From sequence record PQ724393.1: a stretch of DNA of 64,000 nt; one strand, written 5' to 3'. The notes under the pieces were generated by a model that worked only from the letters and a program-made list of their open reading frames with translations, had not been told where the DNA came from and searched no databases. The stretch is from a phage. Position numbers and translations under genes: made by a program. Shown piece after piece: positions 3,604 through 64,000 of the stretch; the stretch's first letter is position 1, and the number at the start of each line of letters is the position of its first letter.

Positions 3604-4584
3604 TTATTTCAGAAGTGTAACTTCAGCGATTTCGCTCCAGTCATTTTTATCGGTGGCAATGAAGTCCGCCAGATAAAGAGCCGTACGTAATGATACGTTA
3701 CGAAGACGAGATACATTGGCCTTCATCCAGGACAGTGCTTGATAAGTCTCAGCATCAGTCAGACCTCGATTTTGCAACATATCAGTGGAAAGGATAACGT
3801 CTTCAACACGAACCATAATCTCTTCGTTAGAGTGAACTCCGAGGTCTAAGTAAACTGAACGAGATACTAAAGCCTGGAGGTGTGGAGCAAGTTTAGTGCC
3901 ACGTTCTAATTCACGGTCAATATCAACGTTGGTGATGAACACGATGGTGCCTTCATATTCGAATTCTTTATCGATATTTTTATCATCGAGGTAAGAACTT
4001 GAAGTGCTCCAGCACACCTTACGTTTTTCACCGGTATCCAATGCCGCTTTTAACAGGTTCAGGATATCCATATCAGAGAATACATCGACATCATCGATAA
4101 GAAGAACACTATTAGGGCCGCGGTTATTCCAAAGCTGCTCGTAAAGACCGATTCCACTAATCTTTCCGTTGATTGATTTATATTCGATAGTTTCATTTTC
4201 GTGGGCATTCTGTAATGCTTTATCCAAAGAATACGTTTTACCAATACCTGCGGCACCAGAGATGATAAGGGAACGAATTTTACCATCGATGATTCCGTTA
4301 GTCATCATGTTCATTACTTTAAAACGTTTGTTGATGCGATGCTTCATTTCTTCAGCGGATTCAGTAACCATTGCAGGAGCTTCAGCACCTTCCATTTCAA
4401 CATCACATTTGAACACCCATATACCACGTTCAACACCATCAATCTGTACGAATACCTTACCATCACCGAGGTGAGCTTCGGATTCATGAATTTTGTTAGG
4501 GAACCAGGTTTTACCTGAACTCATGAACGTACCAGAGATTTCATTACCGCGATAGATACCTTTGTTGATTTTGATAGTTAACAT
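3604..4584 (-). CDS. P-loop NTPase (Walker A GAAGIGKT, Walker B VLLIDDVD), function unknown
   Basis: start moved to internal ATG at 4584 (GGAG RBS; the upstream part of the track ORF contains the promoter element); Walker motifs about 55 aa apart, AAA+-like spacing. Confidence 0.65.
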   Translation of the reverse strand: MLTIKINKGIYRGNEISGTFMSSGKTWFPNKIHESEAHLGDGKVFVQIDGVERGIWVFKCDVEMEGAEAPAMVTESAEEMKHRINKRFKVMNMMTNGIIDGKIRSLIISGAAGIGKTYSLDKALQNAHENETIEYKSINGKISGIGLYEQLWNNRGPNSVLLIDDVDVFSDMDILNLLKAALDTGEKRKVCWSTSSSYLDDKNIDKEFEYEGTIVFITNVDIDRELERGTKLAPHLQALVSRSVYLDLGVHSNEEIMVRVEDVILSTDMLQNRGLTDAETYQALSWMKANVSRLRNVSLRTALYLADFIATDKNDWSEIAEVTLLK

Positions 4585-4622
4585 TATATTCTCCGTTTCA
4601 CTCAGTAGATTTGATAGGTCCA

Positions 4623-4650
4623 TAATAACATGCTCTACGAGGTTGTAAAC
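4623..4650 (-). promoter_or_regulatory. sigma70-like promoter (GTTTAC-N16-TATTAT on minus strand)
   Basis: degenerate copy of the repeated element upstream of the ATPase gene. Confidence 0.45.
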
Positions 4651-4668
4651 ACTTTTTTGCACTAAACC

Positions 4669-4693
4669 CAAAAAAGGACCCCGAAGGGTCCTA
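4669..4693 (-). terminator. rho-independent terminator (minus strand)
   Basis: GGACCC-CGAA-GGGTCC hairpin followed by U-run on minus-strand RNA. Confidence 0.7.
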
Positions 4694-4915
4694 AATTGCG
4701 CTCCAATAATTATGGAAGCGGATATTATTGATAGCCCAGTTAATACAACGTCTTATCTGCTTAGTCGTAGGCTTGCATACGTACTTGAAATTGATTCTTC
4801 TACCGGTTTCTCTACAAACTACTTCAAGATACCAACGACAGGTTTTATGAGGTCTTCCATATGACAGGAAAACCTTGATTTCTTCTTTAACGGTAATAAG
4901 AGTTGTGGTTGTCAA
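4691..4915 (-). CDS. small Cys-containing ORF (74 aa), uncertain
   Basis: ORF between the NTase gene and the terminator; overlaps upstream gene end; four Cys residues. Confidence 0.3.
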   Translation of the reverse strand: MTTTTLITVKEEIKVFLSYGRPHKTCRWYLEVVCRETGRRINFKYVCKPTTKQIRRCINWAINNIRFHNYWSAI

Positions 4916-5897
4916 GATACACCTCTTCGACGAACTTGTCCCAGAACTTCATGTCCACCTTCGCAGGCATACCGTTCTTAGCAGCCCAGATGGCATTGGT
5001 TTCGACTTCGTCTACAATAGCTTCAAGTTCGGCCTGCACATCTTTAAAAGCATGTAACCCCTGTTTGATTTCAAGGATAAATGGCGCAGTACGTAAAGGG
5101 TATTGAAGGTCACCAGTTTGATAGATTTCCTTCAACTGGTATCCGGCCCTATAAGCATGACTCAGAGCTTTCCAGTCAATACCTTCATTGGCTTCTGCCT
5201 TACGAGCACGTTCACCATATTCGGCGTCAAGCTTATTCAGAGATTGCTTGAGCTCGATTAATGACAAAGTAGTCTGATATTTACGTCCGAGAACAGTATA
5301 GAACGTTTGTGGGCCTGTTTTCTCATGGTTATGGAATACCCATTCACAGAATTCGTTTTCAGGGAGCCGATGTTTGATATCTTCTACCTTAGTGCGACGA
5401 AGACGGTCCGGAATTCCTTCTTGATAATCAACCCATTGTTCAGGAATCTGGTTGACTATTGCCAATACACCACGCAGAGCAGCCAGTCGAGAACCTTTAA
5501 CACCATATTTGGAAGCTTGCTTGCGGACATACCCTAAATAGGCTTTCATGTTGGTTGTATAGAACCGTGAACGGTTGTCTTGGATAAATTTCCATACGTC
5601 AGGTAAATCGGATTTGACAACCAGGTCAGCCGGTGTGTGAATCATGTCCAGGGCAACGGTTTCGCCATCGGCTGCCAGTTTAAAGAAATATTTCAGACTA
5701 TAAAGTTCATGGTCAACATCATCTTTTGTATTTTTGGTAGCCGTGTTATTCGTGTTCAGGTTTGTATGGTTCATAGCCGTACCTAACAGAATATCACGCG
5801 GATGTGGAACAAAGATTTCTTTAAAATCGATATCAGATTCCGGAGTACTTGTTCCATAAAGGTGGGAGCCAAAATATCCCTTCATAACTGTTCTCAT
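4887..5897 (-). CDS. nucleotidyltransferase-fold protein (Pol-beta-like GS-x10-DxD motif near N-terminus), function unknown
   Basis: N-terminus GYFGSHLYGTSTPESDIDF matches [GS]-x9-13-DxD NTase signature; 336 aa. Confidence 0.6.
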   Translation of the reverse strand: MRTVMKGYFGSHLYGTSTPESDIDFKEIFVPHPRDILLGTAMNHTNLNTNNTATKNTKDDVDHELYSLKYFFKLAADGETVALDMIHTPADLVVKSDLPDVWKFIQDNRSRFYTTNMKAYLGYVRKQASKYGVKGSRLAALRGVLAIVNQIPEQWVDYQEGIPDRLRRTKVEDIKHRLPENEFCEWVFHNHEKTGPQTFYTVLGRKYQTTLSLIELKQSLNKLDAEYGERARKAEANEGIDWKALSHAYRAGYQLKEIYQTGDLQYPLRTAPFILEIKQGLHAFKDVQAELEAIVDEVETNAIWAAKNGMPAKVDMKFWDKFVEEVYLDNHNSYYR

Positions 5898-6700
5898 TAT
5901 TCACCTCTTTCATAGTCTTCAATAAATTGCATAATTAAACGTTGATAGTTGGATTTGGGATATCCTAATTTACTAATATAGGTTCCGAAAGCTCCACGCT
6001 TAGGCCTATTTAATTTAACCCATAAAGAATAAAGCAAATCATAATCTTGCCAATGTTTCCCTATTCTTTGCTTTGCTTTAGAAGCATCAGATTGCCTCTT
6101 TTTAGTCTCTGGATTATTTAGAGATTTCTTAACAGCATTCGAATGCCTTTCTCTAACATCAGGGCGTTTAAATGCTTCTTTAATAGCTTTAGAAATTTTC
6201 TCTTTAACTTCAGGACGGTTTTGAGCTTCTATTTGAGCCGCCGACATTTTATCTTTTATTTCTGGTAGACTCATAGTTATAGAACGTTTATTTCTATATT
6301 CTTCAGTCTTCCATATTTCTTTCATCGTATTTGAGTGAATTTCTGAAAATTTTTCTCTAACTAATTGATACCCTCTAGAAGTTAGTTTAAGATTTCTTCC
6401 TAAAGAATCCTCGCCAAAGTTATAAAATGACCACCAGGCATAAATTAATCCTGAAGAATCAGAATGAATTCTAGCTAGAAGCCAGTGTGCTATAAAATGT
6501 TCTCTAGCTGTCAACAGAACCAAATTATTAGGTTCATCACTCCCGCCAATACATGACGGGATTATATGATGGGACTCTGTATAAAAATTTAATTTGGATT
6601 TGTCTAATCCTCTAAGTTTACCTCTTTGGATTAGACTATCATAAAGCTTGGTATAATTCATTATGGATTTGTTTTGTCCTCGAAGTGGATTACAGGACAC
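5897..6700 (-). CDS. HNH homing endonuclease with NUMOD-like DNA-binding repeats (MobD-like)
   Basis: HHIIPSCIGGSDEPNNLVLLTAREHFIAHWLL HNH motif; repeated N-x-PE-x-K-x-K-x-SKA-x-K units; track start is GTG at 6700, an internal ATG near 6661 is an alternative. Confidence 0.8.
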   Translation of the reverse strand: MSCNPLRGQNKSIMNYTKLYDSLIQRGKLRGLDKSKLNFYTESHHIIPSCIGGSDEPNNLVLLTAREHFIAHWLLARIHSDSSGLIYAWWSFYNFGEDSLGRNLKLTSRGYQLVREKFSEIHSNTMKEIWKTEEYRNKRSITMSLPEIKDKMSAAQIEAQNRPEVKEKISKAIKEAFKRPDVRERHSNAVKKSLNNPETKKRQSDASKAKQRIGKHWQDYDLLYSLWVKLNRPKRGAFGTYISKLGYPKSNYQRLIMQFIEDYERGE

Positions 6701-7119
6701 ATCTTAGATTTACGAGCTTTAATGTATTGAATAACGATATTTTCTTTAGTTTCTCGGCCTTCACGCTCAGCTTGAATACGTTGCCATTCCTTTTCTTCTC
6801 TACGGGCATCATACCATGCGTGTAAATTCATCGCACCAAATGCCAAACCGATGGATAGTGCAATAATAAGAGCTATTACAATCAACCCTAAAACAAACCC
6901 TAGACTCAACAGAACAGGAGTACTTAATACAAAGAAATGCTCTAATACACCAGCTCCTGCAACAGTTAATCCAAAAAGCGTACTACCTGCAACAACAGCA
7001 CAAGCAAAACAAGCCCAAATCATTTTCCAGAAATATGCACATAAAGAGTGTGGTCGAGAATGGCTGTCATAAAAACGGTCGTGTAATTTAACGTGCCAAG
7101 AGTTTGAATTGATAATCAT
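6661..7119 (-). CDS. membrane protein (152 aa)
   Basis: ORF with two long hydrophobic helices. Confidence 0.5.
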   Translation of the reverse strand: MIINSNSWHVKLHDRFYDSHSRPHSLCAYFWKMIWACFACAVVAGSTLFGLTVAGAGVLEHFFVLSTPVLLSLGFVLGLIVIALIIALSIGLAFGAMNLHAWYDARREEKEWQRIQAEREGRETKENIVIQYIKARKSKMCPVIHFEDKTNP

Positions 7120-7129
7120 AATATTTTCC

Positions 7130-7690
7130 TTAAGAGTTCATAGTTGGGATAACAGAGTTCAGATAAGAGACTAAAGCCTTAAGCTCGTCCTTAGTAAATA
7201 CCACTTCATTTTCACCGTCATGTCTTTGGACAATGGACAACAAATCACGACCCTGATGTTGATACACGGATAATTCGGTATCATAATCCAGTTCTTCTTC
7301 ATCACCTTCAAATGTTTCACTAGAACGAATTACAGCATCTTGTCCAGGGACTTTCCATTCAACTTCTGGCTTGCATTCTTCCTGGAAGAGTTTGAAAATA
7401 CATTTAAAGAAATTACTAGAATCGCTAATGCTTAGGCATTCCGTATCAGTTTCGATATTAAACCCGTTGTCATGGTTATAAATCTGGGCCCACATATCAT
7501 CATTAATATCAAATACACCTCTAAAACTACCATTAAGATATTCGTGTTTGTCCAAAACCTTTAAATCGTAAAGTGGTTTGATATCTTGGATAGTCAGTAC
7601 GATTTTATCGTCTTCTTGTGAAAGCACAATTGCATTATCAACTACTTCAGCGGTCAGGTCACCAAACAGCCCAGATGTTTCAATAATCAT
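7130..7690 (-). CDS. hypothetical acidic protein (186 aa)
   Basis: ORF in array. Confidence 0.55.
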   Translation of the reverse strand: MIIETSGLFGDLTAEVVDNAIVLSQEDDKIVLTIQDIKPLYDLKVLDKHEYLNGSFRGVFDINDDMWAQIYNHDNGFNIETDTECLSISDSSNFFKCIFKLFQEECKPEVEWKVPGQDAVIRSSETFEGDEEELDYDTELSVYQHQGRDLLSIVQRHDGENEVVFTKDELKALVSYLNSVIPTMNS

Positions 7691-7700
7691 TTTCCGTTCC

Positions 7701-7883
7701 TCATTTCACATTTTGTTTAATAAAATTTAACAACTCTTTAAGAGCTTCATCTTCTTCTTTAGAAAGCCTGCTGCATTCACTAGCTGGGTAATCATTGCAA
7801 AACGCAGTTTCAAATCTAGCAACTGTACCTGCATAGGCCTCGATAAGCTCTTCAAGCTTTAAATGCTTTTCTTCGGTTTTCAT
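7701..7883 (-). CDS. hypothetical small protein (60 aa)
   Basis: short ORF tightly packed in array. Confidence 0.4.
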   Translation of the reverse strand: MKTEEKHLKLEELIEAYAGTVARFETAFCNDYPASECSRLSKEEDEALKELLNFIKQNVK

Positions 7884-7886
7884 AAA

Positions 7887-8153
7887 TCACCGGTTATGTT
7901 TTAAAATACTATAAAGCTCTTCGACCTGGCTCGCATTCAGACAAATCATATCATTTTCTTGTTGGAGCGTAATTCCACCTTTTTCTTCCCAATCTTTAAC
8001 AAAGATGTCATCGTCAGATTCTTCAACATCTGCCAAGAGGACAATAATACCGTCTTCAGAATTACCACTTGGGTCGTATAACATTACAGTTTCCTCGCTA
8101 ACCATGAAAAGAATAAACCAATTAAAACAGGCCCTATAAGCATTGTTAACCAA
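7887..8153 (-). CDS. hypothetical small protein (up to 88 aa; true start probably internal)
   Basis: short ORF in array. Confidence 0.4.
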   Translation of the reverse strand: MVNNAYRACFNWFILFMVSEETVMLYDPSGNSEDGIIVLLADVEESDDDIFVKDWEEKGGITLQQENDMICLNASQVEELYSILKHNR

Positions 8154-8203
8154 GCCCAGGGTTCTAAGTAATAAATCATCTCATACTCCTGTGCCATCAG
8201 CCA

Positions 8204-8386
8204 TTATGCTTTCAACTCATTAAGATACTCAACCAATGCAGCTTTAGAATTAGCCAAATCTCGTTTACACTGCTCTATTCCGGAATATGAATAGCCTTCA
8301 CAATATTCAACGGCCAGGTCATTGGATGCGTTTTCAATGTGCTGGGCGAGTTTAAGGATTTGTTCAATCTGTTCAGTAGTTAACAT
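8204..8386 (-). CDS. hypothetical small protein (60 aa)
   Basis: short ORF in array. Confidence 0.4.
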   Translation of the reverse strand: MLTTEQIEQILKLAQHIENASNDLAVEYCEGYSYSGIEQCKRDLANSKAALVEYLNELKA

Positions 8387-8390
8387 AATA

Positions 8391-8627
8391 TCACCAGTAT
8401 TTGTTGATAGTAGAAATTAATTCTTGGGCTTGGGTGGTTTTCAGTTTACATCCACAACCCTTTAATGTGTCTTTAAGGAGCCACGGTTCCTTGAGCTCGT
8501 CTTTTTCTAGGCGAATTCTATATCCTCGATAATCGGCAAAGATACTTCGGTCGTCGAATATCTTAATCTCAAGGATACGACCGTTGATTTCATATTCTAA
8601 TGAAACCGTAGTACTTGTAAGTTTCAC
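8391..8627 (-). CDS. hypothetical small protein (78 aa)
   Basis: short ORF downstream of promoter-like element; track start is GTG. Confidence 0.45.
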   Translation of the reverse strand: MKLTSTTVSLEYEINGRILEIKIFDDRSIFADYRGYRIRLEKDELKEPWLLKDTLKGCGCKLKTTQAQELISTINKYW

Positions 8628-8655
8628 ACCGTTCTCCTCATTAGTTGATAGGTCT

Positions 8656-8684
8656 ATAGTATCACGTTCCTAGAGGATGTAAAT
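8656..8684 (-). promoter_or_regulatory. repeated promoter-hairpin element (ATTTAC-N17-TACTAT)
   Basis: core TTGATAGGTCTATAGTATCA; GTAAAT at 8679-8684. Confidence 0.45.
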
Positions 8685-8693
8685 ACCTAAACG

Positions 8694-8720
8694 AAAAAAA
8701 GGTCCCACCGAAGTGAGACC
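8694..8720 (-). terminator. rho-independent terminator (minus strand)
   Basis: A-run then GGTCCCAC-CGAA-GTGAGACC hairpin on plus strand, i.e. hairpin plus U-run on minus RNA. Confidence 0.65.
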
Positions 8721-8725
8721 TTTGA

Positions 8726-9109
8726 TTATTCTAACGTTAACAAATATTTAGTCTGGTAAAAGACCCCAGTGATATCGTCCAAAGTCGACTGGATGGCCTT
8801 AGGAAGGGTATCATAGATTTTATCAGATGCTTTAAGAAGCTCGTCAAGGAAATCTACAGGGTCCTTAGGCAAGTCTGAAGCAGACGGTAATGATGCTTTA
8901 TATTCTTTGCCACTGAATCCAAGATATTGCTCACTAAATTGGTCCAGCGGTCCTTGAACTTCTACATAATAGAAGTCATACGCTTTGTGTCTTGCATAGC
9001 TTTTGGTTTCTAAATGGGCTGACTTAAAATAGGCTAAAGAAACCAGTAGCCAACCAATATAAGAATCCACTTCAGACCCTCGACCGGGTACGAAATCATT
9101 GAACTTCAT
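8726..9109 (-). CDS. hypothetical protein (127 aa), rI.-1 position
   Basis: ORF adjacent to rI-like gene; size matches T4 rI.-1 from memory. Confidence 0.5.
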   Translation of the reverse strand: MKFNDFVPGRGSEVDSYIGWLLVSLAYFKSAHLETKSYARHKAYDFYYVEVQGPLDQFSEQYLGFSGKEYKASLPSASDLPKDPVDFLDELLKASDKIYDTLPKAIQSTLDDITGVFYQTKYLLTLE

Positions 9110-9389
9110 CTTCCACCTTCATTAGTTTTGCATAACGCTCTCCGATGGCACGACCCTCAATTGAGCACGCTTCTATAGTCCGACAACTTGATATCTTCCA
9201 AGAAGCCGTAACATAGGCCCAATAGTCTTCGGAGGCCTTTATGCTAGGTCTACTCATTTGCGCATAAACAGGCATCGCACTACTAGCAAATGCATCCATC
9301 AATTTATCGTGAGTATTATTTGCTAGTGAAACTGTAGGGCTTAAACATCCCGCCATAAGGATACAAGCCGCTGTACGGAAAATATCCAT
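9096..9389 (-). CDS. RI-like periplasmic protein (putative lysis-inhibition regulator)
   Basis: 97 aa with N-terminal signal-like hydrophobic segment; C-terminal region resembles T4 RI as I recall it; located next to tk as in T4. Confidence 0.4.
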   Translation of the reverse strand: MDIFRTAACILMAGCLSPTVSLANNTHDKLMDAFASSAMPVYAQMSRPSIKASEDYWAYVTASWKISSCRTIEACSIEGRAIGERYAKLMKVEDEVQ

Positions 9390-9478
9390 ACAAAAGTCCT
9401 TTGTTGTTTTATACTATTTGCCTTTCGGCCTTAACCGATAGCGATTACCAAAAGCTAAAGCTCTACGGTTAGTATTAT

Positions 9479-9486
9479 TATTTATA
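9479..9486 (-). promoter_or_regulatory. late promoter TATAAATA (minus strand)
   Basis: TATTTATA on plus strand upstream of rI-like gene. Confidence 0.35.
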
Positions 9487-9760
9487 GCTTTTTAAGCTTA
9501 CGACAATAAGAATAGAACACGTCGTTAAAATTATGCTCAACCCAATTCCTCTGTATAGGCGAGGTAATGGAAAGCATATAATGGGCTTTAATTAAATCCA
9601 TCCCATTTTTATTAGGACATTCTTTATTATTAGCATTATACGTCGCCGCTACAACCTCTATCTCTCTTTTGTAAGCCACATCATCCATGATAGGCGAAAG
9701 AACAATATAAGAAATAGCCACAGCGAACGCTAGAATTAAAATCTTTGAATTTAGGTCCAT
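9482..9760 (-). CDS. membrane-anchored small protein (92 aa)
   Basis: ORF with N-terminal TM helix. Confidence 0.45.
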   Translation of the reverse strand: MDLNSKILILAFAVAISYIVLSPIMDDVAYKREIEVVAATYNANNKECPNKNGMDLIKAHYMLSITSPIQRNWVEHNFNDVFYSYCRKLKKL

Positions 9761-9767
9761 AGTACCC

Positions 9768-10340
9768 TCAACTCGTTATTTCTATCCAGTGCTTCCTGCA
9801 CAATGACACGTAAGAATCGTTGCCACCTATAGAAACTTGGGCTCCGTCCTTAATTGCGACACCATCTTGGACCCTAGCAGTCATAGTAGCTTTACGGCCG
9901 CAATGGCACACACCTTTGTACTCAACGAGCTTATCTGCTGTAGCGAGTAATTCAGCAGAGCCAGGAAACAGTTTACCCTGAAAATCAGTTCTTAGTCCAT
10001 AACACATAACTGGAACATTATAATTGTCTACTATCTTCGCCAGTTGTTTTATCTGTGCAGGTTCTAAGAACTGTGCTTCATCCACAAATACGCAGTGGAT
10101 ATCTTTTTGAGATTCAGCCCAACGATAGAACTCGTATAGGTCCATATCCGGAGTCACTGCATTAGCCTCTTGACTAATCCCTATACGAGACGAAATGGTA
10201 TGGCTTGATTCTCTATTGTCTATCGCAGGCTTTAAAAGGAGTACGCCCATACCACGTTCTTTGTAGTTATGAGCTGCCGTTAGCAATGAAGCTGTCTTAC
10301 CTGAGTTCATTGCCGCATAGTGAAACATCAAACTTGCCAT
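9768..10340 (-). CDS. tk: thymidine kinase
   Basis: MASLMFHYAAMNSGKTASLL P-loop and near-colinear match to T4 Tk as recalled; C-terminal CHCG...CRKH zinc motif. Confidence 0.9.
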   Translation of the reverse strand: MASLMFHYAAMNSGKTASLLTAAHNYKERGMGVLLLKPAIDNRESSHTISSRIGISQEANAVTPDMDLYEFYRWAESQKDIHCVFVDEAQFLEPAQIKQLAKIVDNYNVPVMCYGLRTDFQGKLFPGSAELLATADKLVEYKGVCHCGRKATMTARVQDGVAIKDGAQVSIGGNDSYVSLCRKHWIEITS

Positions 10341-10349
10341 ATCACCTTC

Positions 10350-10535
10350 TTATTCTGTAATACTTTCCAGATAATTTTCTAAATCGTCTGAAGCCTTATT
10401 AAGGGCTTCTAGCGCTTTATAATAGTCTTCACGGGAGTAATATTCTGTATGAAGTTCTTCGTCGTATTCGCTTTTAGCATCAACAACAGTTTCAATCATA
10501 TCCAGAATTTTATTTTTCTGTTCTTTAGTAATCAT
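10350..10535 (-). CDS. hypothetical small acidic protein (61 aa)
   Basis: short ORF; tk.x position. Confidence 0.4.
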   Translation of the reverse strand: MITKEQKNKILDMIETVVDAKSEYDEELHTEYYSREDYYKALEALNKASDDLENYLESITE

Positions 10536-10543
10536 AATATACC

Positions 10544-10729
10544 CTAAAGCGTATTCACATAAGCAATTAATTCGTTTTCTTTCTCATCAAATCTATTAGC
10601 AAATTCTTCCAGACGTTCGGCATCTATCGGGCCGTATTCATCGTAAAAAGCGTTTGCTTCGGTATGTTCATCCAAAAGCTCATGAATAAGCTCAAACAAT
10701 CTACTTTTCTGACTAATACTTAAACTCAT
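10544..10729 (-). CDS. hypothetical small acidic protein (61 aa)
   Basis: short ORF; tk.x position. Confidence 0.4.
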   Translation of the reverse strand: MSLSISQKSRLFELIHELLDEHTEANAFYDEYGPIDAERLEEFANRFDEKENELIAYVNTL

Positions 10730-10953
10730 TTAGGTTCACCATATCGCACAAATTTAGGATGTTCGCAATAACCGGAATGAAAACCTTCACCCTTATGATT
10801 AGAACATCCTTTATTAGAACAGTACCACCAGTAATCATATTCGCAATTCATTTCATCATTGCATAAAGCTGCGATTACCGGCCATTCACATTTTTCACAT
10901 TTAGCCGTTTTAAGAATTCTAGCTTGGCTCATAACCATTGCACCTTTAAGCAA
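10726..10953 (-). CDS. Cys-rich small protein (75 aa), probable zinc ribbon
   Basis: CEKCEW...CNDEMNC...CSNKGC pattern. Confidence 0.45.
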   Translation of the reverse strand: MLKGAMVMSQARILKTAKCEKCEWPVIAALCNDEMNCEYDYWWYCSNKGCSNHKGEGFHSGYCEHPKFVRYGEPK

Positions 10954-11141
10954 TATTCTTCTACATGCTGTTTACGTTTATTTTTATCTATAAAAGTATA
11001 TTCAACATATTCACCGATATACCATTTATCAGTGTTGTGTTGACTTTTTATAGGGCATTTAGTTACTCGGGTTTCGGTCCAGCGCCGAATAATTTCAGCT
11101 TTATTTTTAGGGTCAAACGGATGCGGGTAATGTGCTTTCAT
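10929..11141 (-). CDS. hypothetical small protein (70 aa)
   Basis: short ORF in array. Confidence 0.4.
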   Translation of the reverse strand: MKAHYPHPFDPKNKAEIIRRWTETRVTKCPIKSQHNTDKWYIGEYVEYTFIDKNKRKQHVEEYCLKVQWL

Positions 11142-11592
11142 AATCCACCACTATTAAATCAATATCAGGGGTAAACATGTCGATTAATTTAGAAACCTTT
11201 TCCCAATCACCGCCAGCAATACCACAACCGATGCGAGGAATATAAATTCTTGGTTTAAACAAAAGGGTTTCTGCTTGTAGATTTAATTCTATCATACAGT
11301 TTACTAAAGCACCGTAATCAAGATTAGGGCCGGGTTCGTATTGGGTGTATAAATTATAGCACATTGCAAATCCATTAGGCTTATGTTTAAAAACAATAGA
11401 CATATCGCCTAATTTATCACGAGAACCGTATTCAGTAGTGGTCTTATCAATTTCTAAGATTTTAGGATAGGCTCTTGCTAATTGACCGGCCACGCCTGAA
11501 CCCATAGTATGAAAACAGTTGCACCCATGTGCAATAATATTACCTTGGAGAAACAGGGCGACGATATCGCCCTTAATATAATCAATAATCAT
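11113..11592 (-). CDS. macro-domain-like protein (putative ADP-ribose binding or hydrolase)
   Basis: GDIVALFLQGNIIAHGCNCFHTMGSGVAGQL parallels macro-domain GDIT...NAAN...GGGV(A/D)GAI pattern; later IPRIGCGIAGG parallels the distal macro motif; judged by eye only. Confidence 0.45.
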   Translation of the reverse strand: MIIDYIKGDIVALFLQGNIIAHGCNCFHTMGSGVAGQLARAYPKILEIDKTTTEYGSRDKLGDMSIVFKHKPNGFAMCYNLYTQYEPGPNLDYGALVNCMIELNLQAETLLFKPRIYIPRIGCGIAGGDWEKVSKLIDMFTPDIDLIVVDYESTLPASV

Positions 11593-18545: not shown

Positions 18546-18758
18546 TTACTTTTTGTTGAAAAAGTACATTTTACCTTTAGGAGATAAGGATACACGAAGG
18601 GCGTTACCAATACCAACTGAACATTTAACCAGGTCAGCAGATTTCAATTCACCAAATGCTTGACGAAGGTCTCCATCACGAGTGTTAACCATCAGGCATT
18701 TAGCACCAGCTGCACGAACTTCGTTTAACATGTTGATTGCTTGGTTAGAAAGTTTCAT
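18546..18758 (-). CDS. hypothetical small protein (about 70 aa)
   Basis: start moved to internal ATG downstream of the promoter element that lies inside the track ORF. Confidence 0.4.
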   Translation of the reverse strand: MKLSNQAINMLNEVRAAGAKCLMVNTRDGDLRQAFGELKSADLVKCSVGIGNALRVSLSPKGKMYFFNKK

Positions 18759-18795
18759 TTTATTCTCCATTTCACTCTGTTGTTTTGATAGGTCT

Positions 18796-18824
18796 ATAGT
18801 ATCACACCTATAGACCTTGTACAC
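18796..18824 (-). promoter_or_regulatory. repeated promoter-hairpin element (inverted repeat GGTCTATAG / CTATAGACC)
   Basis: core TTGATAGGTCTATAGTATCA; 9-bp inverted repeat. Confidence 0.45.
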
Positions 18825-18836
18825 TGTTTTGTGCAA

Positions 18837-19796
18837 TTATTTTTCGAAAGGACGAATTAAATGATGGTTATCTTGGAAACGCTTGATGTAGTCGTTTTCA
18901 CCTAAAGTCTTATACATATTCACTACAGCTTGGTAGTTTTCCCAGGCGTACTCGCGGAACCAACCTGAAGTGATTGAGGTACACACTTTCTCAAGAGCCA
19001 TATAAAAACTTAATGATGGTGAAATATTGAAGTCATTAGGAACCTGTGAACGTTCTAGTGCCAGGACACAAGTTTCTTCATATACACCAGCCAGTTTAAT
19101 AGCTTCGGGCAAAGCCTCGAACTTCTCACGAGAGGTCATGACTTCAGAACCTTCCTTCATATAAAAGGTATATGCAGGGCGTCCAGCCAATGCTACTGCT
19201 TCATGAATAGAGTCATGGTCCAGCGTATAAATGGTATCATTAAAGAACGATGATTTGTTTACGTCCAATTTAGGGTGAGAATAGCTCAACGTTTCTTTTT
19301 GACGTTGCAACATAATTTCCCGGAGTTCTTCGTTCAGGGTGATACCTTTATTACGAAGGTATTTGATGTGGGACATAGTTTTCAAGAAGAACGGATTATT
19401 CTTCAGGAAACGATGAGAGGTTTTGATAGCCAGACAGATATCAGGCGTTGCCCAATAGAAACCAGTAAGACGGTCCTTTTTAATATGATTTTCAGCATAT
19501 TTCAGGAGACGATAACTTGAAGTGAAATCTTCGTCTTGAAGCTCGCCAGTAATTTCTCGTACGTTAGTCAGAGCACGGACAATATAAGCTTCAAAATAGG
19601 TTTCTTTACCATTGTACATACATTTAAAGGCCTGGACATCAGGATTATCCACAGGAACATGAGCGCCGAACATCCGGGCTTTAAAGTGATTCCATGAGCC
19701 TTGGTCGGCAATGAAATCCCAATCAGAATTTTCGATATGCTTACTTTCAATCAGACCAGCGTGGTGCAGTGCACGAGAACCAATAACTAGCATCAT
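18837..19796 (-). CDS. hypothetical protein (319 aa)
   Basis: long ORF; N-terminus LVIGSRALHH...SDWDF loosely NTase-like but spacing atypical. Confidence 0.55.
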   Translation of the reverse strand: MMLVIGSRALHHAGLIESKHIENSDWDFIADQGSWNHFKARMFGAHVPVDNPDVQAFKCMYNGKETYFEAYIVRALTNVREITGELQDEDFTSSYRLLKYAENHIKKDRLTGFYWATPDICLAIKTSHRFLKNNPFFLKTMSHIKYLRNKGITLNEELREIMLQRQKETLSYSHPKLDVNKSSFFNDTIYTLDHDSIHEAVALAGRPAYTFYMKEGSEVMTSREKFEALPEAIKLAGVYEETCVLALERSQVPNDFNISPSLSFYMALEKVCTSITSGWFREYAWENYQAVVNMYKTLGENDYIKRFQDNHHLIRPFEK

Positions 19797-19998
19797 AATA
19801 TTTTCCTCATTAATAAAGACGAGTTACTTCATATTTACCCAGTTCAGATTTTTTTGCTTCAATACGCGTTGCGGCTAGATTAGCAGCCTCTAGTGAAGAA
19901 AATTGGACCACTTGGGAAGTATTCTGCCTTACGCCACCTTGTGGGTGAGTAACAAAAACAATAAGAACATTATACATAATATTTTCCTCAGAGTAAAC

Positions 19999-59315: not shown

Positions 59316-60875
59316 ATGAAAAAGAATGCATTAGTTCAAAAATGGTCCGCTCTGCTGGAAAACGAAGCCCTTCCTGAAATCGTGGGTGCTTCTAAACAAG
59401 CTATCATCGCTAAAATTTTCGAAAACCAGGAACAAGACATCCTGACTGCTCCGGAATACCGTGATGAAAAAATCTCTGAAGCATTTGGTTCTTTCCTGAC
59501 CGAAGCTGAAATTGGTGGTGACCACGGTTATGATGCTACCAATATCGCAGCTGGCCAGACTTCTGGTGCTGTAACTCAGATTGGGCCGGCAGTAATGGGT
59601 ATGGTTCGTCGTGCTATTCCTCATCTGATTGCTTTTGATATTTGTGGTGTTCAGCCTCTGAATAACCCTACCGGCCAGGTATTTGCCCTTCGTGCAGTTT
59701 ACGGTAAAGACCCTATCGCTGCTGGCGCTAAAGAAGCTTTCCATCCGATGTATTCTCCGGACGCTATGTTCTCTGGTCAGGGTGCTGCTAAATCTTTCGA
59801 AGCACTGGCCGCAAGCAAAGTTCTGGAAGTTGGTAAAATTTATTCCCACTTCTTCGAAGCTACCGGTGCTGCACACTTCCAGGCTGTTGAAGCTGTAACC
59901 GTTGATGCTGCTGCTACCGATGCCGCTAAACTGGATGCTGCTGTTACCGCTTTGATTGAAGCTGGTAAGTTGGCTGAATTGGCTGAAGGTATGGCTACTT
60001 CTATCGCTGAACTTCAGGAAGGCTTTAACGGTTCTCAGGATAACCCATGGAACGAAATGGGCTTCCGCATCGACAAACAAGTTATCGAAGCTAAATCCCG
60101 TCAGCTGAAAGCAAGCTACTCTATCGAACTGGCACAGGACCTTCGTGCAGTACACGGTATGGATGCAGATGCTGAACTGTCCGGTATCCTTGCTACCGAA
60201 ATTATGCTCGAAATCAACCGTGAAGTTATCGATTGGATTAACTACTCTGCACAGGTTGGTAAATCTGGTATGACCAACACCGTTGGCGCTAAAGCTGGTG
60301 TGTTTGACTTCCAGGACCCGATTGATATCCGTGGTGCTCGTTGGGCCGGTGAGAGCTTTAAAGCCCTTCTGTTCCAGATTGATAAAGAAGCAGCCGAAAT
60401 CGCTCGTCAGACCGGTCGTGGTGCTGGTAACTTCATCATCGCTTCCCGTAACGTAGTTAACGTACTGGCTGCAGTTGATACTTCTGTAAGTTATGCAGCT
60501 CAAGGTCTGGGTCAGGGTTTCAACGTTGACACAACCAAAGCAGTATTTGCCGGTGTTCTTGGTGGTAAATATCGTGTTTACATCGACCAGTATGCTCGTT
60601 CCGATTACTTCACCATCGGTTATAAAGGTTCCAACGAAATGGACGCAGGTATCTACTATGCTCCGTACGTTGCACTGACTCCGCTGCGTGGTTCCGATCC
60701 GAAGAACTTCCAACCGGTAATGGGCTTCAAAACTCGTTACGGTATCGGTATTAACCCGTTCGCTGACCCAGCTGCTCAGGCGCCTACCAAACGTATTCAG
60801 AATGGTATGCCTGACATCGTTAACAGCCTCGGTCTGAATGGTTACTTCCGTCGGGTTTATGTCAAAGGAATTTGA
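59316..60875 (+). CDS. 23: major capsid protein gp23
   Basis: 519 aa; very high similarity to T4 gp23 along whole length as recalled. Confidence 0.97.
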   Translation: MKKNALVQKWSALLENEALPEIVGASKQAIIAKIFENQEQDILTAPEYRDEKISEAFGSFLTEAEIGGDHGYDATNIAAGQTSGAVTQIGPAVMGMVRRAIPHLIAFDICGVQPLNNPTGQVFALRAVYGKDPIAAGAKEAFHPMYSPDAMFSGQGAAKSFEALAASKVLEVGKIYSHFFEATGAAHFQAVEAVTVDAAATDAAKLDAAVTALIEAGKLAELAEGMATSIAELQEGFNGSQDNPWNEMGFRIDKQVIEAKSRQLKASYSIELAQDLRAVHGMDADAELSGILATEIMLEINREVIDWINYSAQVGKSGMTNTVGAKAGVFDFQDPIDIRGARWAGESFKALLFQIDKEAAEIARQTGRGAGNFIIASRNVVNVLAAVDTSVSYAAQGLGQGFNVDTTKAVFAGVLGGKYRVYIDQYARSDYFTIGYKGSNEMDAGIYYAPYVALTPLRGSDPKNFQPVMGFKTRYGIGINPFADPAAQAPTKRIQNGMPDIVNSLGLNGYFRRVYVKGI

Positions 60876-60906
60876 TAACATAAGTTATTAATTCTTAAAA
60901 TTATTT

Positions 60907-60924
60907 GGGAGACTTCGGTCTCCC
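60907..60924 (+). terminator. hairpin terminator after gene 23 (possibly bidirectional)
   Basis: GGGAGAC-TTCG-GTCTCCC followed by T-rich tract. Confidence 0.6.
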
Positions 60925-60939
60925 ATTCTTGTTTCTATA

Positions 60940-61206
60940 CTATGCAATCTTAACACGACGGTTGATGATATCACGGAAGTCAATACGATTTTCTTGGATT
61001 TTCAGCCAGTTACCAGATTTGTCTTTGGTATGGGTAGAGTATTCACCGTTCCACCAGAAGTCGGTAGCATAAGCCATGGCTTCGTATTTCTTAACTAGTG
61101 CATTCACTGCATTACCGTTAGGATTGGAACCATATTTTTCTACCAGGGCTTTGATGTCTTTATCAAGAGCGGAAAGAGTAGTACGAATAAAGTTTAACTT
61201 GTTCAT
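60940..61206 (-). CDS. hypothetical small protein (about 88 aa) between genes 23 and 24
   Basis: start at ATG 61206 with GAGGAG RBS; driven by copy of repeated promoter element; no GIY-YIG or HNH motif. Confidence 0.5.
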   Translation of the reverse strand: MNKLNFIRTTLSALDKDIKALVEKYGSNPNGNAVNALVKKYEAMAYATDFWWNGEYSTHTKDKSGNWLKIQENRIDFRDIINRRVKIA

Positions 61207-61235
61207 TTTTAATCTCCTCATGTTTTGATAGGTCT

Positions 61236-61271: not shown

Positions 61272-61279
61272 TATAAATA
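61272..61279 (+). promoter_or_regulatory. late promoter TATAAATA for gene 24
   Basis: exact match. Confidence 0.65.
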
Positions 61280-61307
61280 AACATATACCCTCAATAAGGA
61301 AAGCGCA

Positions 61308-62591
61308 ATGGCAAAGATTAACGAATTACTGCGCGAGTCAACAACTACTTCTAGCAACTCATTGGGTCGCCCTAATCTTGTTGCTTTGACCCGTGCTACA
61401 ACCAAATTGATTTACCGTGATATTATTGCTGAACAACGTACTAGCCAGCCTATTGCTGCATTGTATGGTGTCAAATATCTTACTCCTGATAATGAATTTA
61501 GCTTCCAAACTGGTGCCGTTTATGGTGGTGAAGTTGGTTCTAAAGACCGTGAAACTATCCCGGAACTCACAGATAAGGCCCAGGCTATTGCCAAGGGTGA
61601 ATATTTCAAGTATCAGAACATAGTTTATAAGGCTCTTCAAGCAAGCCCACTCGCATCCACTAGCGCTACAGAATTGGCTGATGCCCTTCAAGAAGGTTTG
61701 GTGTCATTAACATGTCGTCTGGTTCCTGATGCGGCTCACACAGAGAAATTCGAAGCAGGTGATGTTGAAATTAGTAATGCAGTATTCCAGGTTAATAAAT
61801 GGAACGCACCTGTTAAGTCTCGTAAACTTAAGACCGCTTTGACTGTAGAACTAGCCCAAGACATGGAATCCAATGGCTTCGACGCCCCTGCATTCTTAGA
61901 AGACCTCCTGGCTACAGTAATGGCTGATGAGATTAATAAAGACGTTCTGCAGTCTCTAATAACCGTATCTAAACGCTATAAAGTTACCGGTGTATCTGAT
62001 AATGGTATCATGGATTTGACTTATGATAGCGCTCCAGAATCTGCACGTAAACTTTATGAAATTGTTTGTGAGATGAATTCTGAAATCCAGAAAACTACTT
62101 CTTATTCTGGTACGTTTGTTGTGGCTTCAAGTCGTGTAGCTGCAATGCTTGCGGGTTCAGGCTGGTTAAAACATAAACCTGAAGATAATAATTGGCTCCC
62201 AGAAACTGCCTATGGTTATTTGCTGAATGGATTACCTCTGTTCTGTGACGTTAACAGCCCATTGGATTATGTTATCGTCGGTGTTAAAGAGAACTATGGT
62301 GGTAATGAAGTCGTCGGTTCTATTTTCTACGCCCCATACACAGAAGGCCTGGATTTAGATGACCCGGAACACGTCGGTGCTTATAAGGTTATTGTTGACC
62401 CGGATTCATTACAGCCTTCTATTTCTCTGATGGTTCGTTATGCGCTGTCCGCTAACCCGTACACCGTAGCTAAAGACGATAAAGAAGCTCGTGTTATCGA
62501 TGCAACCAATATGGATTTAATGGCTGGTCAGAGTAATATGTCCTATCTGCTCGGTGTTAAACTTCCAGCAATTATTTACGAGGCTGATTAA
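61308..62591 (+). CDS. 24: head vertex protein gp24
   Basis: 427 aa; closely matches T4 gp24 as recalled. Confidence 0.95.
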   Translation: MAKINELLRESTTTSSNSLGRPNLVALTRATTKLIYRDIIAEQRTSQPIAALYGVKYLTPDNEFSFQTGAVYGGEVGSKDRETIPELTDKAQAIAKGEYFKYQNIVYKALQASPLASTSATELADALQEGLVSLTCRLVPDAAHTEKFEAGDVEISNAVFQVNKWNAPVKSRKLKTALTVELAQDMESNGFDAPAFLEDLLATVMADEINKDVLQSLITVSKRYKVTGVSDNGIMDLTYDSAPESARKLYEIVCEMNSEIQKTTSYSGTFVVASSRVAAMLAGSGWLKHKPEDNNWLPETAYGYLLNGLPLFCDVNSPLDYVIVGVKENYGGNEVVGSIFYAPYTEGLDLDDPEHVGAYKVIVDPDSLQPSISLMVRYALSANPYTVAKDDKEARVIDATNMDLMAGQSNMSYLLGVKLPAIIYEAD

Positions 62592-63871
62592 TGTCTAAGA
62601 TTATAGACCTAATTAAAGAATCCACATTGACGGCTGCCAACTCGGTTGGCCGTCCTGCTCTTCTTTCATACACCCAAGCAACTAATAAACGAATCTTTAA
62701 AGCCCTAGTTGCTGAACAAAAAACAAGCCAACCTGTTGCTGCTCTGTACGGGGTTCGTGTACTTAACCCTGATGACAAAATGACTTATCTTGGTGGCGCT
62801 ACATTTGCAGGCCAGATTGGTATGTCGGAACGTGAAAATATTCCTGAATTTACCGATTCGTCTACAGCTTATGCAGCCGGCGATATGTTCCAGTTTGAAA
62901 GTGTAGTGTTTAAAGTTCTAGAAGCATCTCCTTTCGCCGGAACCACGGAAACCGACCTTGGTGAAGTTATTTCTGAAGCAGTGGCAGCCGGGCATATTCG
63001 TATGGTATCAGATGCTGCTATTACTTCTAAATTTGAACAAGGCCATCCCGAAATTGCTGAAGCAGGCTTCCGTATTGACAAATGGCAATCTGAGGTTAAA
63101 TCACGTAAACTGAAAACTTCGTTGACAGTCGAATTAGCCCAAGACCTAGAATCAAACGGATTTAATGCTCCTAATTTCGTTGAAAATCTGCTAGGCATTC
63201 AAATGGCAGAAGAAATTAATAAGGACGTATTACAGTCATTAATTACGGTGAGTTCTCGTTTTAAAGTCCAAGGTGTTTCCGAAAAGGGTGTATTGGACCT
63301 TACTAACCCACGTTACGATAATGCCCAGGACCGTGCTCGTACATTATATTATTACATGTGTGAGATGAACTCTGCCGTCCAACGTCAAACTTCTTTCGCC
63401 GGGACTTATGCAGTAGCTAGTTCTCGTTGTGCTGCTATTCTCGCCGCTTCCGGTTGGGTTGAGAAAAAGGAAGACCAAGACGAACTGGCTTACGGTATAT
63501 TAAAAAATGGCCTGCCTCTTTATGCCGATATGAATAGTCCGTGTGATTATGTTATTGTTGGCGTAAATGCTCAGATGGGTGAAGGACAGACGGTCGCATC
63601 TTTATATTATGCGCCTTATACGGAAGGTTTGAATGTGGTTGACGAAGAAGGTGATACTTCGGTAGGTGAATTTAAGGTTATTGTTGACCCGGAAAGCTTG
63701 CAACCTACAGTAGCATTGCTTGCTCGTTATGCATTGACGGCAAACCCTTATACCGTCGCTAAGGACGATAAAGAAGCCCGCATTATTGATGGTTCTGATA
63801 TGGACAAAATGGCTAATCAAAGTCAATTGAGTTCTTATCTCGGTGTAAAATTACCACCTTTAGAAAAATAA
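62591..63871 (+). CDS. second head vertex protein, divergent gp24 paralog
   Basis: 426 aa; alignable to the first copy along its full length with shared blocks (KSRKLKT..TVELAQD, INKDVLQSLITVS, YAPYTEGL, YTVAKDDKEAR); TAATG overlap. Confidence 0.85.
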   Translation: MSKIIDLIKESTLTAANSVGRPALLSYTQATNKRIFKALVAEQKTSQPVAALYGVRVLNPDDKMTYLGGATFAGQIGMSERENIPEFTDSSTAYAAGDMFQFESVVFKVLEASPFAGTTETDLGEVISEAVAAGHIRMVSDAAITSKFEQGHPEIAEAGFRIDKWQSEVKSRKLKTSLTVELAQDLESNGFNAPNFVENLLGIQMAEEINKDVLQSLITVSSRFKVQGVSEKGVLDLTNPRYDNAQDRARTLYYYMCEMNSAVQRQTSFAGTYAVASSRCAAILAASGWVEKKEDQDELAYGILKNGLPLYADMNSPCDYVIVGVNAQMGEGQTVASLYYAPYTEGLNVVDEEGDTSVGEFKVIVDPESLQPTVALLARYALTANPYTVAKDDKEARIIDGSDMDKMANQSQLSSYLGVKLPPLEK

Positions 63872-63873
63872 AA

Positions 63874-63889
63874 GGGACCGTAAGGTCCC
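63874..63889. terminator. hairpin terminator, likely bidirectional
   Basis: GGGACC-GTAA-GGTCCC followed by T-run on plus and A-run context on minus. Confidence 0.6.
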
Positions 63890-63897
63890 TTTATCAT

Positions 63898-64000
63898 TTA
63901 TTTGGATACTAGTTCAATCCATACTGCTCGTAAGGTATCTTTTACGCACTCAACGAGCTGCTTTTTAACTTCAACAGGATTTTCGGCATCAGTTAATTCT
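63898..64000 (-). CDS. hypothetical protein, 3' end only (gene continues beyond right edge)
   Basis: open minus-strand frame ending at TAA 63900-63898 (...RAVWIELVSK); T4 has rnlB/hoc in this position. Confidence 0.4.
   Translation of the reverse strand, partial: ELTDAENPVEVKKQLVECVKDTLRAVWIELVSK

Follow-up and report, generated by a model that had tools for sequence, protein, structure and literature searches.

An old, co-inherited pair of gp24 paralogs, probably two distinct head vertex proteins, in Dhakavirus and other T4-like phages

The phage DNA analysed here (record PQ724393.1, a stretch of 64,000 nucleotides that we refer to as the window) encodes two intact, full-length homologues of the T4 head vertex protein gp24 in tandem, 24a and 24b. 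We suggest that these are most likely two distinct vertex (penton) proteins of one head. The fuller account that we favor, and consider probable, is that 24a and 24b are old, co-inherited paralogs expressed from a single late transcript, that the two proteins enter the prohead and are cleaved there, and that they form separate homopentamers, each occupying some of the 11 non-portal vertices. The pair itself is already known, as GenBank annotation names genes 24a and 24b, and its presence in the sequence is ordinary among JS98/JS10-type phages. What the present analysis adds is the ancient split between the two copies, the inheritance of the pair as a unit, and 24b-specific changes that appear to fall in intra-pentamer contact elements.

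Layout of the locus and homology of the two copies

The window derives from a Dhakavirus, with DNA identities over the whole gp23-to-rnlB stretch of 96.5% to phage NC-G and 94% to JS10. Its head-gene block runs gp21-gp22-gp23-(small ORF)-24a-24b, and the synteny gp23-24a-24b-rnlB, with rnlB convergent, is found at this locus. From gene 23 onwards the features are as follows.

59316..60875, plus strand: gene 23, upstream, major capsid protein of 519 aa (ORF; gp23 in the JS10 annotation)
60906..60925: G+C-rich hairpin 3' of gene 23, terminator-like on both strands
60940..61221, minus strand: ORF of 93 aa lying between genes 23 and 24a, of unknown function
61272..61279, plus strand: T4-type late promoter box TATAAATA, 29 nt 5' of the 24a start
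61296..61300, plus strand: Shine-Dalgarno AAGGA of 24a, as read from the sequence
61308..62591, plus strand: gene 24a, 427 aa, the head vertex protein paralog nearer T4 gp24 (ORF, BLASTP, PF07068)
62580..62583, plus strand: Shine-Dalgarno GAGG of 24b, within the 3' end of 24a and 7 nt before the ATG
62591..63871, plus strand: gene 24b, 426 aa, the second head vertex paralog (ORF, BLASTP, PF07068, tree, signature residues)
63871..63892: 9-bp G+C-rich hairpin between the convergent 24b and rnlB, terminator-like on both strands
63898..64000, minus strand: 3' end of rnlB (RNA ligase 2), truncated at the edge of the window

An earlier reading of the window, made from its letters alone (the sequence-only reading), had described two adjacent ORFs of these lengths overlapping by one base, and this is borne out: the 24a stop TAA (62589-62591) and the 24b ATG (62591-62593) have one base in common, giving TAATG. 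The promoter box TATAAATA is the only one from gene 23 to the end of 24b, and the two genes have this one late promoter and one terminator between them; across the window the box has 15 matches, 12 of them on the plus strand and most in the late structural gene block. With the box 5' of 24a and the hairpin 3' of 24b, a single late transcript would carry both genes, and translation of 24b would be coupled to that of 24a through the TAATG overlap and the internal GAGG. The same earlier reading had proposed that a second vertex gene might take the place of the rnlB/hoc region. This does not hold, as the C-terminus of RnlB is encoded on the minus strand in the final 100 nt of the window (the translation is identical to the last 33 aa of JS10 RnlB), and JS10 itself has rnlB, 24.3 and hoc downstream. 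The small minus-strand ORF at 60940..61221 had no Pfam match, and a minus-strand 'hypothetical protein' sits at the equivalent place in JS10, VR5 and JS09.

Both copies are gp24-like, as had been supposed. Against T4 gp24 (PDB 1YUE, residues 1-423/424) they align end to end with 664 bits (24a) and 508 bits (24b), compared with only ~46 bits for each against gp23 chains, and they match PF07068 (the Gp23 / T4 capsid protein superfamily) with 329 and 325 bits, for a gathering cut-off of 24.4. By BLASTP 24a and 24b are 57% identical over their full length (77% positives, 500 bits), and gp23 is 27-28% identical to either copy across its C-terminal 250-290 aa. The pairwise comparison of the two ORFs with each other and with gp23 that had been proposed as a check thus upholds homology to gp24. 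The first ORF had also been said to match T4 gp24 closely; it is indeed the nearer of the two, but at ~70% identity to the T4-type protein (~57% for 24b) the word is too strong. Nor are the N-terminal 80 aa of the second copy 'different', because they align to those of the first without a gap and with 39/80 residues identical, the following 80 residues giving 36/80. An L-[LI]-x-E|S motif is kept at residues 7-11 in all 24a and 24b sequences compared (LLRE|S in 24a; LIKE|S, LIHE|S, LIRE|S or LIYE|S in 24b), and a putative cleavage site for the gp21 prohead protease, after Glu10, therefore appears to be retained N-terminally in both copies. 24b also retains the most conserved capsid-contact blocks: KSRKLKT..TVELAQD, YAPYxEG, VDPxSLQP and NPYTV. 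None of the sequence features of a functional T4 vertex protein is missing from either copy.

Distribution, age and origin of the pair

We found a 24b ortholog in 117 phage records, which agrees with the ~119 records that hold two gp24 places and covers the genera Dhakavirus, Gelderlandvirus, Marfavirus and Roskildevirus and part of Kanagawavirus. The gp23-24a-24b order and the tight junction were present in every genome examined (8 named phages and 16/16 IMG/VR loci), and also in 3 divergent metagenomic contigs; the a/b junction of other genomes consists of GAGG or GAG followed by an overlap or a gap of 0-1 nt. The comparison with other T4-like genomes that had been called for accordingly finds the pair annotated in JS10, JS98, IME08, VR5 and VR7. 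A single gene 24, as had been stated for T4, was seen in the gp24 records and named genomes of T4, RB69, CC31, Jiaodavirus, Winklervirus, Acinetobacter phages and others. Phage PEi20 has one gp24 though it is classed in one genus with CIP9 and Kc305, which have two copies, and since it manages with one, heads of this kind do not structurally require a second copy.

Trees of gp24 were computed from distances with bootstrap, in one-outgroup, four-outgroup and 151-sequence versions. The 24b of the window falls inside a monophyletic 24b clade (99-100% support) that branches outside the group uniting 24a with T4, RB69, CC31 and Serratia 4S, and the 24a and 24b subtrees have an identical branching order. 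At an 'ISEAI' block and a 1-residue indel, for example, 24b shares its states with the gp24s of Jiaodavirus, Winklervirus, Acinetobacter phages and the outgroup, whereas 24a and T4 share derived ones. On these trees and residues 24b is a deep, separate lineage with ancestral states that have been lost in 24a and T4, and the split is taken to be old because of this separate branching together with the 57% identity of the copies. For unsaturated pairs dN/dS is 0.03-0.06 in 24a, 0.02-0.06 in 24b and ~0.07 in gp23, so purifying selection on both copies is at least as strong as that on the major capsid protein, and the view that the second copy is no pseudogene is confirmed. The dS between 24a and 24b is saturated, which argues that there has been no gene conversion between them.

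How the pair arose is best discussed in the light of these results. The sequence-only reading took it for a tandem duplication, with a clearly diverged second copy. Two intact, adjacent gp24 homologues are there, but they are neither new nor private to one lineage. A recent lineage-specific duplication, with 24b drifting or newly neofunctionalised, would suit genes that adjoin in the same orientation and at the same length, and a T4 gp24 that is more distant from 24b than from 24a. It is contradicted, however, by the position of the 24b clade, by the older character states that 24b holds, by the low dN/dS and by the sharing of the pair among five genera; moreover, both copies are ~43-45% identical to the Krischvirus outgroup, and 24b therefore has no excess rate. 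We give a recent origin practically no chance. The pair would instead have come either from an ancient duplication in place or from capture of a divergent gp24 gene. In the latter case 24b would be a xenolog from a divergent T4-like phage, one close to Jiaodavirus or Tegunavirus, acquired beside the resident gene 24, after which recombination between the genes on either side, 23 and rnlB, carried the two-gene cassette from genus to genus; taken jointly, these two steps make a tentative account whose chances we put a little below even. The four-outgroup tree places 24b with Jiaodavirus gp24 (59-62% support), and the 151-sequence tree sets it beside P0029 and single-copy proteins of Jiaodavirus and Tegunavirus. 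The pair is patchily spread across genera, and the gene-24 region is mosaic, PEi20 having a gp23 88-90% identical to that of Kc305 and Dhakavirus and a single gp24 only ~70% identical to their 24a. Against capture, the grouping with Jiaodavirus is weakly supported (20-62%), and both the residues S26, N32, R56 and F269 and the one-outgroup rooted tree set 24b outside the other Tevenvirinae and Twarogvirinae gp24s (all 118 of them in the case of the residues). No donor lineage with a lone 24b-type gene was found among the phage records, IMG/VR loci and metagenomic contigs, and composition gives no sign of a foreign origin, as GC, GC3 and Nc of 24b equal those of 24a and its composition is no different from the rest of the genome. 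The function of 24b would be the same under capture as in the account that we favor. Also considered was whether Jiaodavirus gp24 is a collapsed hybrid, with a 24a N-terminus and a 24b C-terminus joined by unequal crossing-over. Its a- and b-type residues are interleaved rather than in two blocks, and because of this pattern, and because most of the 'b' states are common to outgroups, a basal lineage is the better reading.

Proposed roles at the vertices

The prolate T4-type head has 11 pentameric vertices of three geometric kinds: one lies at the apex, five form the distal ring and five the ring nearest the portal. In the account that we favor both gp24 paralogs would enter the prohead, the prohead protease would cut both after Glu10, and 24a and 24b would each assemble their own homopentamers at some of these vertices, so that the shell would be built of three related proteins: gp23, 24a and 24b. 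Incorporation into the virion, homopentamers rather than mixed pentamers, and assignment to particular vertices are the parts of this scheme that we infer. Mass spectrometry has shown the gp24 of Jiaodavirus, the nearest single-copy relative of 24b, to be abundant in the virion (PMC13119998).

From its homology 24b almost certainly has the HK97-like fold with an inserted I domain of the solved gp24. An AlphaFold2 model of 24b is of low confidence (mean pLDDT 59.7, pTM 0.62); its best three Foldseek matches are T4 gp24 chains (E 8e-36 to 4e-29, against ~1e-13 for gp23), with TM scores of just 0.43-0.48 because the domain arrangement of the model is poor. Seventeen signature positions distinguish 24b, among them S26, N32, R34, F36, R56, V57 and G68, and its specific residues are concentrated at positions 26-37 and 56-68. 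Where 24b has R34, V57, G68 and N326, 24a has L34, Y57, T68 and K326. In T4 gp24 the I-domain linker of one subunit pairs with residues 26-29 of its neighbour in the same pentamer, and residues 60-68 are part of a flexible linker region (PMC9546572). The 24b-specific residues thus appear to concentrate in elements that link adjacent subunits inside one pentamer. In the gp23 sequence comparison no column distinguishes two-copy from one-copy phages, and we therefore see no sign of the major capsid protein adapting to a second penton.

Other divisions of labor can be envisaged. 24a and 24b might be conditional alternatives, used according to host, temperature or stress, or might co-assemble as mixed pentamers within each vertex. 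Being co-transcribed and translationally coupled, as the locus predicts, both would be present simultaneously, and vertex composition is reported to influence the low-pH stability of the T4 capsid (PMC10580926). Yet one promoter and coupled translation leave no obvious way to use either copy alone, a five-fold ring cannot place two subunit types equivalently, and 24b-specific changes on both sides of the intra-pentamer contact fit self-recognition better than mixing; we consider such schemes improbable. 24b might also have its role outside the finished capsid, either in assembly, as a nucleator or a kind of scaffold, or in diverting host defences that recognise capsid proteins, as a decoy. The literature search yielded no direct evidence of 24b incorporation into virions, and in 7/7 genomes 24b has a slightly lower codon adaptation, measured relative to gp23, than 24a. 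Against this, 24b keeps the gp24 architecture in full, with its protease cleavage motif and conserved contact blocks, and is as constrained as gp23, and the nearest single-copy relatives of 24b are the sole vertex proteins of their phages. We think a role outside the capsid quite improbable.

A second paralog may form alternative pentameric vertices, as the sequence-only reading had put it. A more specific version, in which each copy would be position-specific and fill a defined subset of vertices, giving two penton species in a tailed-phage capsid, we regard as rather unlikely. To our knowledge two distinct position-specific penton species have not been described for a T4-like phage. If the copies do occupy different vertices, they would offer a natural system for studying how a prolate capsid specifies corners that are not equivalent, with bearing on T4-type nanoparticle design. 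More than 100 T4-like phages retain two strongly constrained vertex proteins; T4 needs one, and even this gp24 is dispensable there, as bypass-24 mutations in gp23 suffice.

Comparison with known systems

Our full-text literature search, whose scope did not take in the JS98 genome paper (PMC2168658), found no discussion of the 24a/24b pair, and full-text and PDB searches found no virion proteomics, genetics or structure of any two-copy phage; the gp24 matches in the PDB were to T4 gp24 only, the Kosakonia Kc305 paper leaves its vertex genes unmentioned, and a transposon-mutagenesis preprint deals with a jumbo phage that is not related. In annotation the pair goes by several names. Genes 24a/24b of the Dhakavirus Escherichia phages JS10, JS98 and IME08 are at the same locus as the pair in the window, VR7 has '24(2)', VR5, VR20, VR25 and VR26 have 'capsid vertex protein I/II', and Salmonella phage CGG4-1 has 'head vertex protein I/II'. 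The JS10-type pair is like that of the window in gene order, lengths and TAATG junction, with 24b proteins 99.3-99.5% identical; the C-terminus differs (...PPLEK, 426 aa, in the window and ...PPLDKN, 427 aa, in JS10), which is no difference of substance. T4 gp24 (PDB 1YUE, 5VF3, 7VS5) resembles both copies in length, in its place after gene 23, in the post-Glu10 motif and in its late-gene setting, but it is the product of a single gene where the window has two.

Within T4 itself, a duplication of the major capsid gene gave rise to the vertex protein, and bypass-24 mutations map to gp23 (PMC10580926). There gp23 and gp24 are capsid-shell paralogs specialised for geometrically different positions, and 24a/24b may follow the same principle. 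The gp23/gp24 split is far older (27-28% identity over part of the length), and it divides hexamer from pentamer formers, whereas 24a and 24b both stand on the pentamer side. Outside phages, CsoS4A and CsoS4B are tandem-encoded vertex pentamer paralogs that close the icosahedral shell of the alpha-carboxysome, their division of labor being unclear. They too are encoded by two adjoining pentamer-paralog genes, and with an unrelated fold and system the likeness to 24a/24b would be one of analogy only.

The two vertex genes and their setting

The two adjacent reading frames claimed by the sequence-only reading, here called 24a and 24b, lie in the following arrangement.

59316-60875: gene 23, upstream of 24a
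60906-60925: hairpin after gene 23
61272-61279: late-promoter box, 29 nt before the 24a start
61308-62591, plus strand: 24a (ORF A), 427 aa, gp24 homologue
62591-63871, plus strand: 24b (ORF B), 426 aa, gp24 homologue
63871-63892: hairpin after 24b

The TAA stop of 24a (62589-62591) and the ATG start of 24b (62591-62593) have one base in common, and the claim of tandem gp24-like frames with a one-base overlap was confirmed: each protein aligns end to end with T4 gp24 (PDB 1YUE; 664 bits for 24a, 508 bits for 24b) and scores above 320 bits with Pfam PF07068, while either reaches only ~46 bits against gp23. Full-length pairwise alignment of 24a with 24b gave 57% identity and 77% similarity, and gp23 of the window is 27-28% identical to either copy, in the C-terminal part. 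The best fold matches of an AlphaFold2 model of 24b were three T4 gp24 chains, well above gp23, the model itself being of low confidence (mean pLDDT 59.7) and too poor for three-dimensional residue mapping. Two details of the sequence-only reading need correction. A ‘close’ match of 24a to T4 gp24 overstates an identity of ~70% with T4-type gp24 (~57% for 24b), and the supposedly different first 80 residues of 24b align to 24a with no gaps and 39/80 identities, as against 36/80 over the next 80 residues.

The prohead-protease motif, with the cut after Glu10 (marked by a slash), is kept in every 24a (LLRE/S) and in every 24b (LI[KHRY]E/S). By the Nei-Gojobori method, applied to unsaturated pairs only, dN/dS between the window and JS10 was 0.057 for 24a, 0.030 for 24b and 0.071 for gp23; against VR5 the values were 0.054, 0.062 and 0.073, and between Kosakonia phage 305 (Kc305) and CIP9 they were 0.028 for 24a and 0.022 for 24b. 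The late-promoter box is the sole one from gene 23 to the end of 24b, and together with the flanking hairpins and a Shine-Dalgarno GAGG inside 24a, 7 nt before the 24b ATG, it makes the pair one late unit with coupled translation. In 7/7 genomes codon adaptation, taken relative to gp23, is a little weaker in 24b than in 24a, which hints weakly that 24b may be as abundant as 24a or less so.

Between genes 23 and 24a lies a 93-aa ORF on the minus strand (60940-61221) without a Pfam match. JS10, VR5 and Mosigvirus JS09 have a similar small minus-strand ‘hypothetical protein’ in this slot; other relatives have a homing endonuclease there, namely segD in IME08 (by annotation) and others in Serratia 4S, Gravdalen and MHG19.

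Distribution, synteny and annotation

A tblastn search with 24b placed gp24 homologues at 1536 sites in 1417 phage records, so that ~119 records have two, and at a stringent cut-off a 24b-type gene was found in 117 phage records. The carriers belong to Dhakavirus (including the VR phages), Gelderlandvirus (S16, STML-198, Melville), Kanagawavirus (CIP9, Kc305, IME523), Marfavirus (F48, Marfa) and Roskildevirus (Erwinia Cronus). The single gene 24 that the sequence-only reading ascribed to T4 was found in the examined Tequatrovirus, Mosigvirus, Karamvirus, Jiaodavirus, Winklervirus, Serratia 4S, Acinetobacter phages, Krischvirus and Pseudotevenvirus. The order gp23-24a-24b is shared by the window, 7/7 named two-copy loci examined, 16/16 IMG/VR loci having a 24b-type gene and three divergent metagenomic contigs with a 24b at 66-70% identity to the query, and a standalone 24b was found in none of these named loci, IMG/VR loci or contigs. 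At the a/b junction of all loci examined the genes overlap by 1 or 4 nt or are 0-1 nt apart.

It had been suggested that the second copy might take the place of rnlB/hoc. This is wrong, as the window ends in 100 nt that encode, on the minus strand, the final 33 residues of RnlB, identical to JS10, and JS10 keeps both 24.3 and hoc further downstream. The earlier interpretation is supported in part, for two gp24 homologues and not for the rnlB/hoc replacement. Extra plus-strand ‘tail fiber-like protein’ genes occur in JS10 (8857-11186 of its locus record), VR5 (7293-9422) and Cronus (5827-7342), and two-copy phages have one or two hoc-like genes beside them, downstream of rnlB and 24.3; in Cronus the extra genes lie directly 3' of 24b, with rnlB shifted farther off. 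Across the two-copy genera the head-decoration region varies.

Over 3.2 kb, from the end of gene 23 to rnlB, the window shares 96.5% identity with phage NC-G and ~94% with Escherichia phage JS10 (Dhakavirus), whose GenBank labels are ‘24a’ and ‘24b’, each a ‘gp24 head vertex protein’. The VR7 record names the pair ‘24(2)’, those of VR5, VR20, VR25 and VR26 use ‘capsid vertex protein I/II’, and that of Salmonella phage CGG4-1 ‘head vertex protein I/II’; the pair is therefore already on record at annotation level. Our literature search found no paper discussing the 24a/24b pair; the JS98 genome paper reportedly mentions the duplication.

Age and origin of the second copy

In 8/8 phages, identity between the two copies of a genome is 52-57%. 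Neighbour-joining trees unite the 24b sequences in one clade (99-100% bootstrap) that branches outside the group of 24a and the gp24 of T4, RB69, CC31 and Serratia 4S, and in a 151-sequence tree including metagenomic proteins this clade has 29 members and 100% support. The branching order is equal in the 24a and 24b subtrees (Cronus, F48, Kanagawavirus, S16, VR5, JS10 with the window), which indicates that the copies have been co-inherited since the common ancestor of these phages. A recent redundant duplication is contradicted by this phylogeny and is most improbable; dS between the copies is saturated, so there has been no mutual homogenisation, and since the Krischvirus outgroup is 43-45% identical to either, rapid evolution of a recent duplicate does not by itself account for 24b. 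At some places 24b agrees with Jiaodavirus, Winklervirus, Acinetobacter-phage and outgroup proteins where 24a and T4 share derived states, for example in the ‘ISEAI’ block and, near position 240, in an indel of one residue. With four outgroups 24b adjoins Jiaodavirus gp24 (59-62% support), and with one it falls outside the other Tevenvirinae and Twarogvirinae gp24s; the four signature sites S26, N32, R56 and F269 likewise place it outside all 118 other proteins of these subfamilies.

The single gp24 of Klebsiella phage phiKp_22 (Jiaodavirus; 4501-5781 of its locus record) is ~64% similar to 24a and 24b alike, and at 57 a/b-diagnostic sites it has 25 a-type and 23 b-type residues. The two types are interleaved, and the protein seems to be a basal lineage from close to where a and b split, not a recombinant. 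In the 151-sequence tree the 24b clade has as its nearest neighbour (36% support) P0029, a single-copy gp24 on the short metagenomic contig SRR33839694_134 (373-1653), with flanking genes unlike the usual gp23/rnlB context. Its lineage could be close to the origin of 24b.

The region has also been exchanged between lineages. Edwardsiella phage PEi20, the Kanagawavirus type species, has one gene 24, of 24a/4S type (18676-19956 of its locus record), and the pair is present in CIP9, Kc305 and IME523 of the same genus. PEi20 gp23 is 88-90% identical to that of Kc305 and Dhakavirus, but identity of its gp24 with 24a of the two-copy genus-mates and Dhakavirus is only ~70%, so related phages have a mosaic gene 24 region. 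Between the window and JS10, dS of 24a (0.30) is about twice that of 24b (0.14) and gp23 (0.14), suggesting that close relatives within Dhakavirus have a recombination patch inside 24a.

Two origins are plausible: an old duplication in place with later losses, or capture of a divergent gp24, after which the pair spread as a cassette. The mosaic state of PEi20 and the patchy distribution tilt the balance slightly towards some cassette movement. The same composition of the two genes, and the failure to find 24b by itself in any lineage, tilt it back.

Differences between the copies and their possible roles

Seventeen positions carry a residue present in >=90% of 24b sequences and <=5% of other gp24s. 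Eight lie at residues 26-37 and 56-68 (S26, N32, R34, F36, K37, R56, V57, G68), and the others are scattered in the C-terminal half (Q246, F269, V290, N326, G332, Q333, D355, S415, Y416). The capsid blocks of highest conservation, KSRKLKT..TVELAQD, YAPYxEG, VDPxSLQP and NPYTV, are unaltered in 24b, and a gp23 comparison found no residue separating two-copy from one-copy phages. In T4 heads, residues 26-29 of one gp24 pair in a parallel beta-interaction with the I-domain linker of its neighbour in the same pentamer, residues 11-20 extend onto the gp23 hexamer alongside, and a flexible linker region includes residues 60-68 (PMC9546572). Going by linear position only, the 24b-specific changes would fall on both partners of the intra-pentamer contact, a placement which suggests that each paralog may be self-recognising and form its own pentamers.

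The best supported reading is that both are probably penton proteins: the prohead protease would cut 24a and 24b alike, both cleaved products would be built into the head, and each would assemble its own homopentamers. That the two occupy defined vertex classes (one apical, five distal-ring, five portal-proximal-ring) is a tentative extension and rather doubtful. Conditional alternation or mixed pentamers, against which the signature placement would set self-recognition, seems unlikely, and a 24b confined to an assembly role or acting as a decoy slightly more so.

The 24a/24b pair is genuine, usual in phages of this group and known before through annotation; the remaining interest is why two constrained vertex proteins are retained. 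In Jiaodavirus, the closest single-copy relatives of 24b, gp24 is the sole vertex protein, and mass spectrometry found it abundant in virions (PMC13119998).
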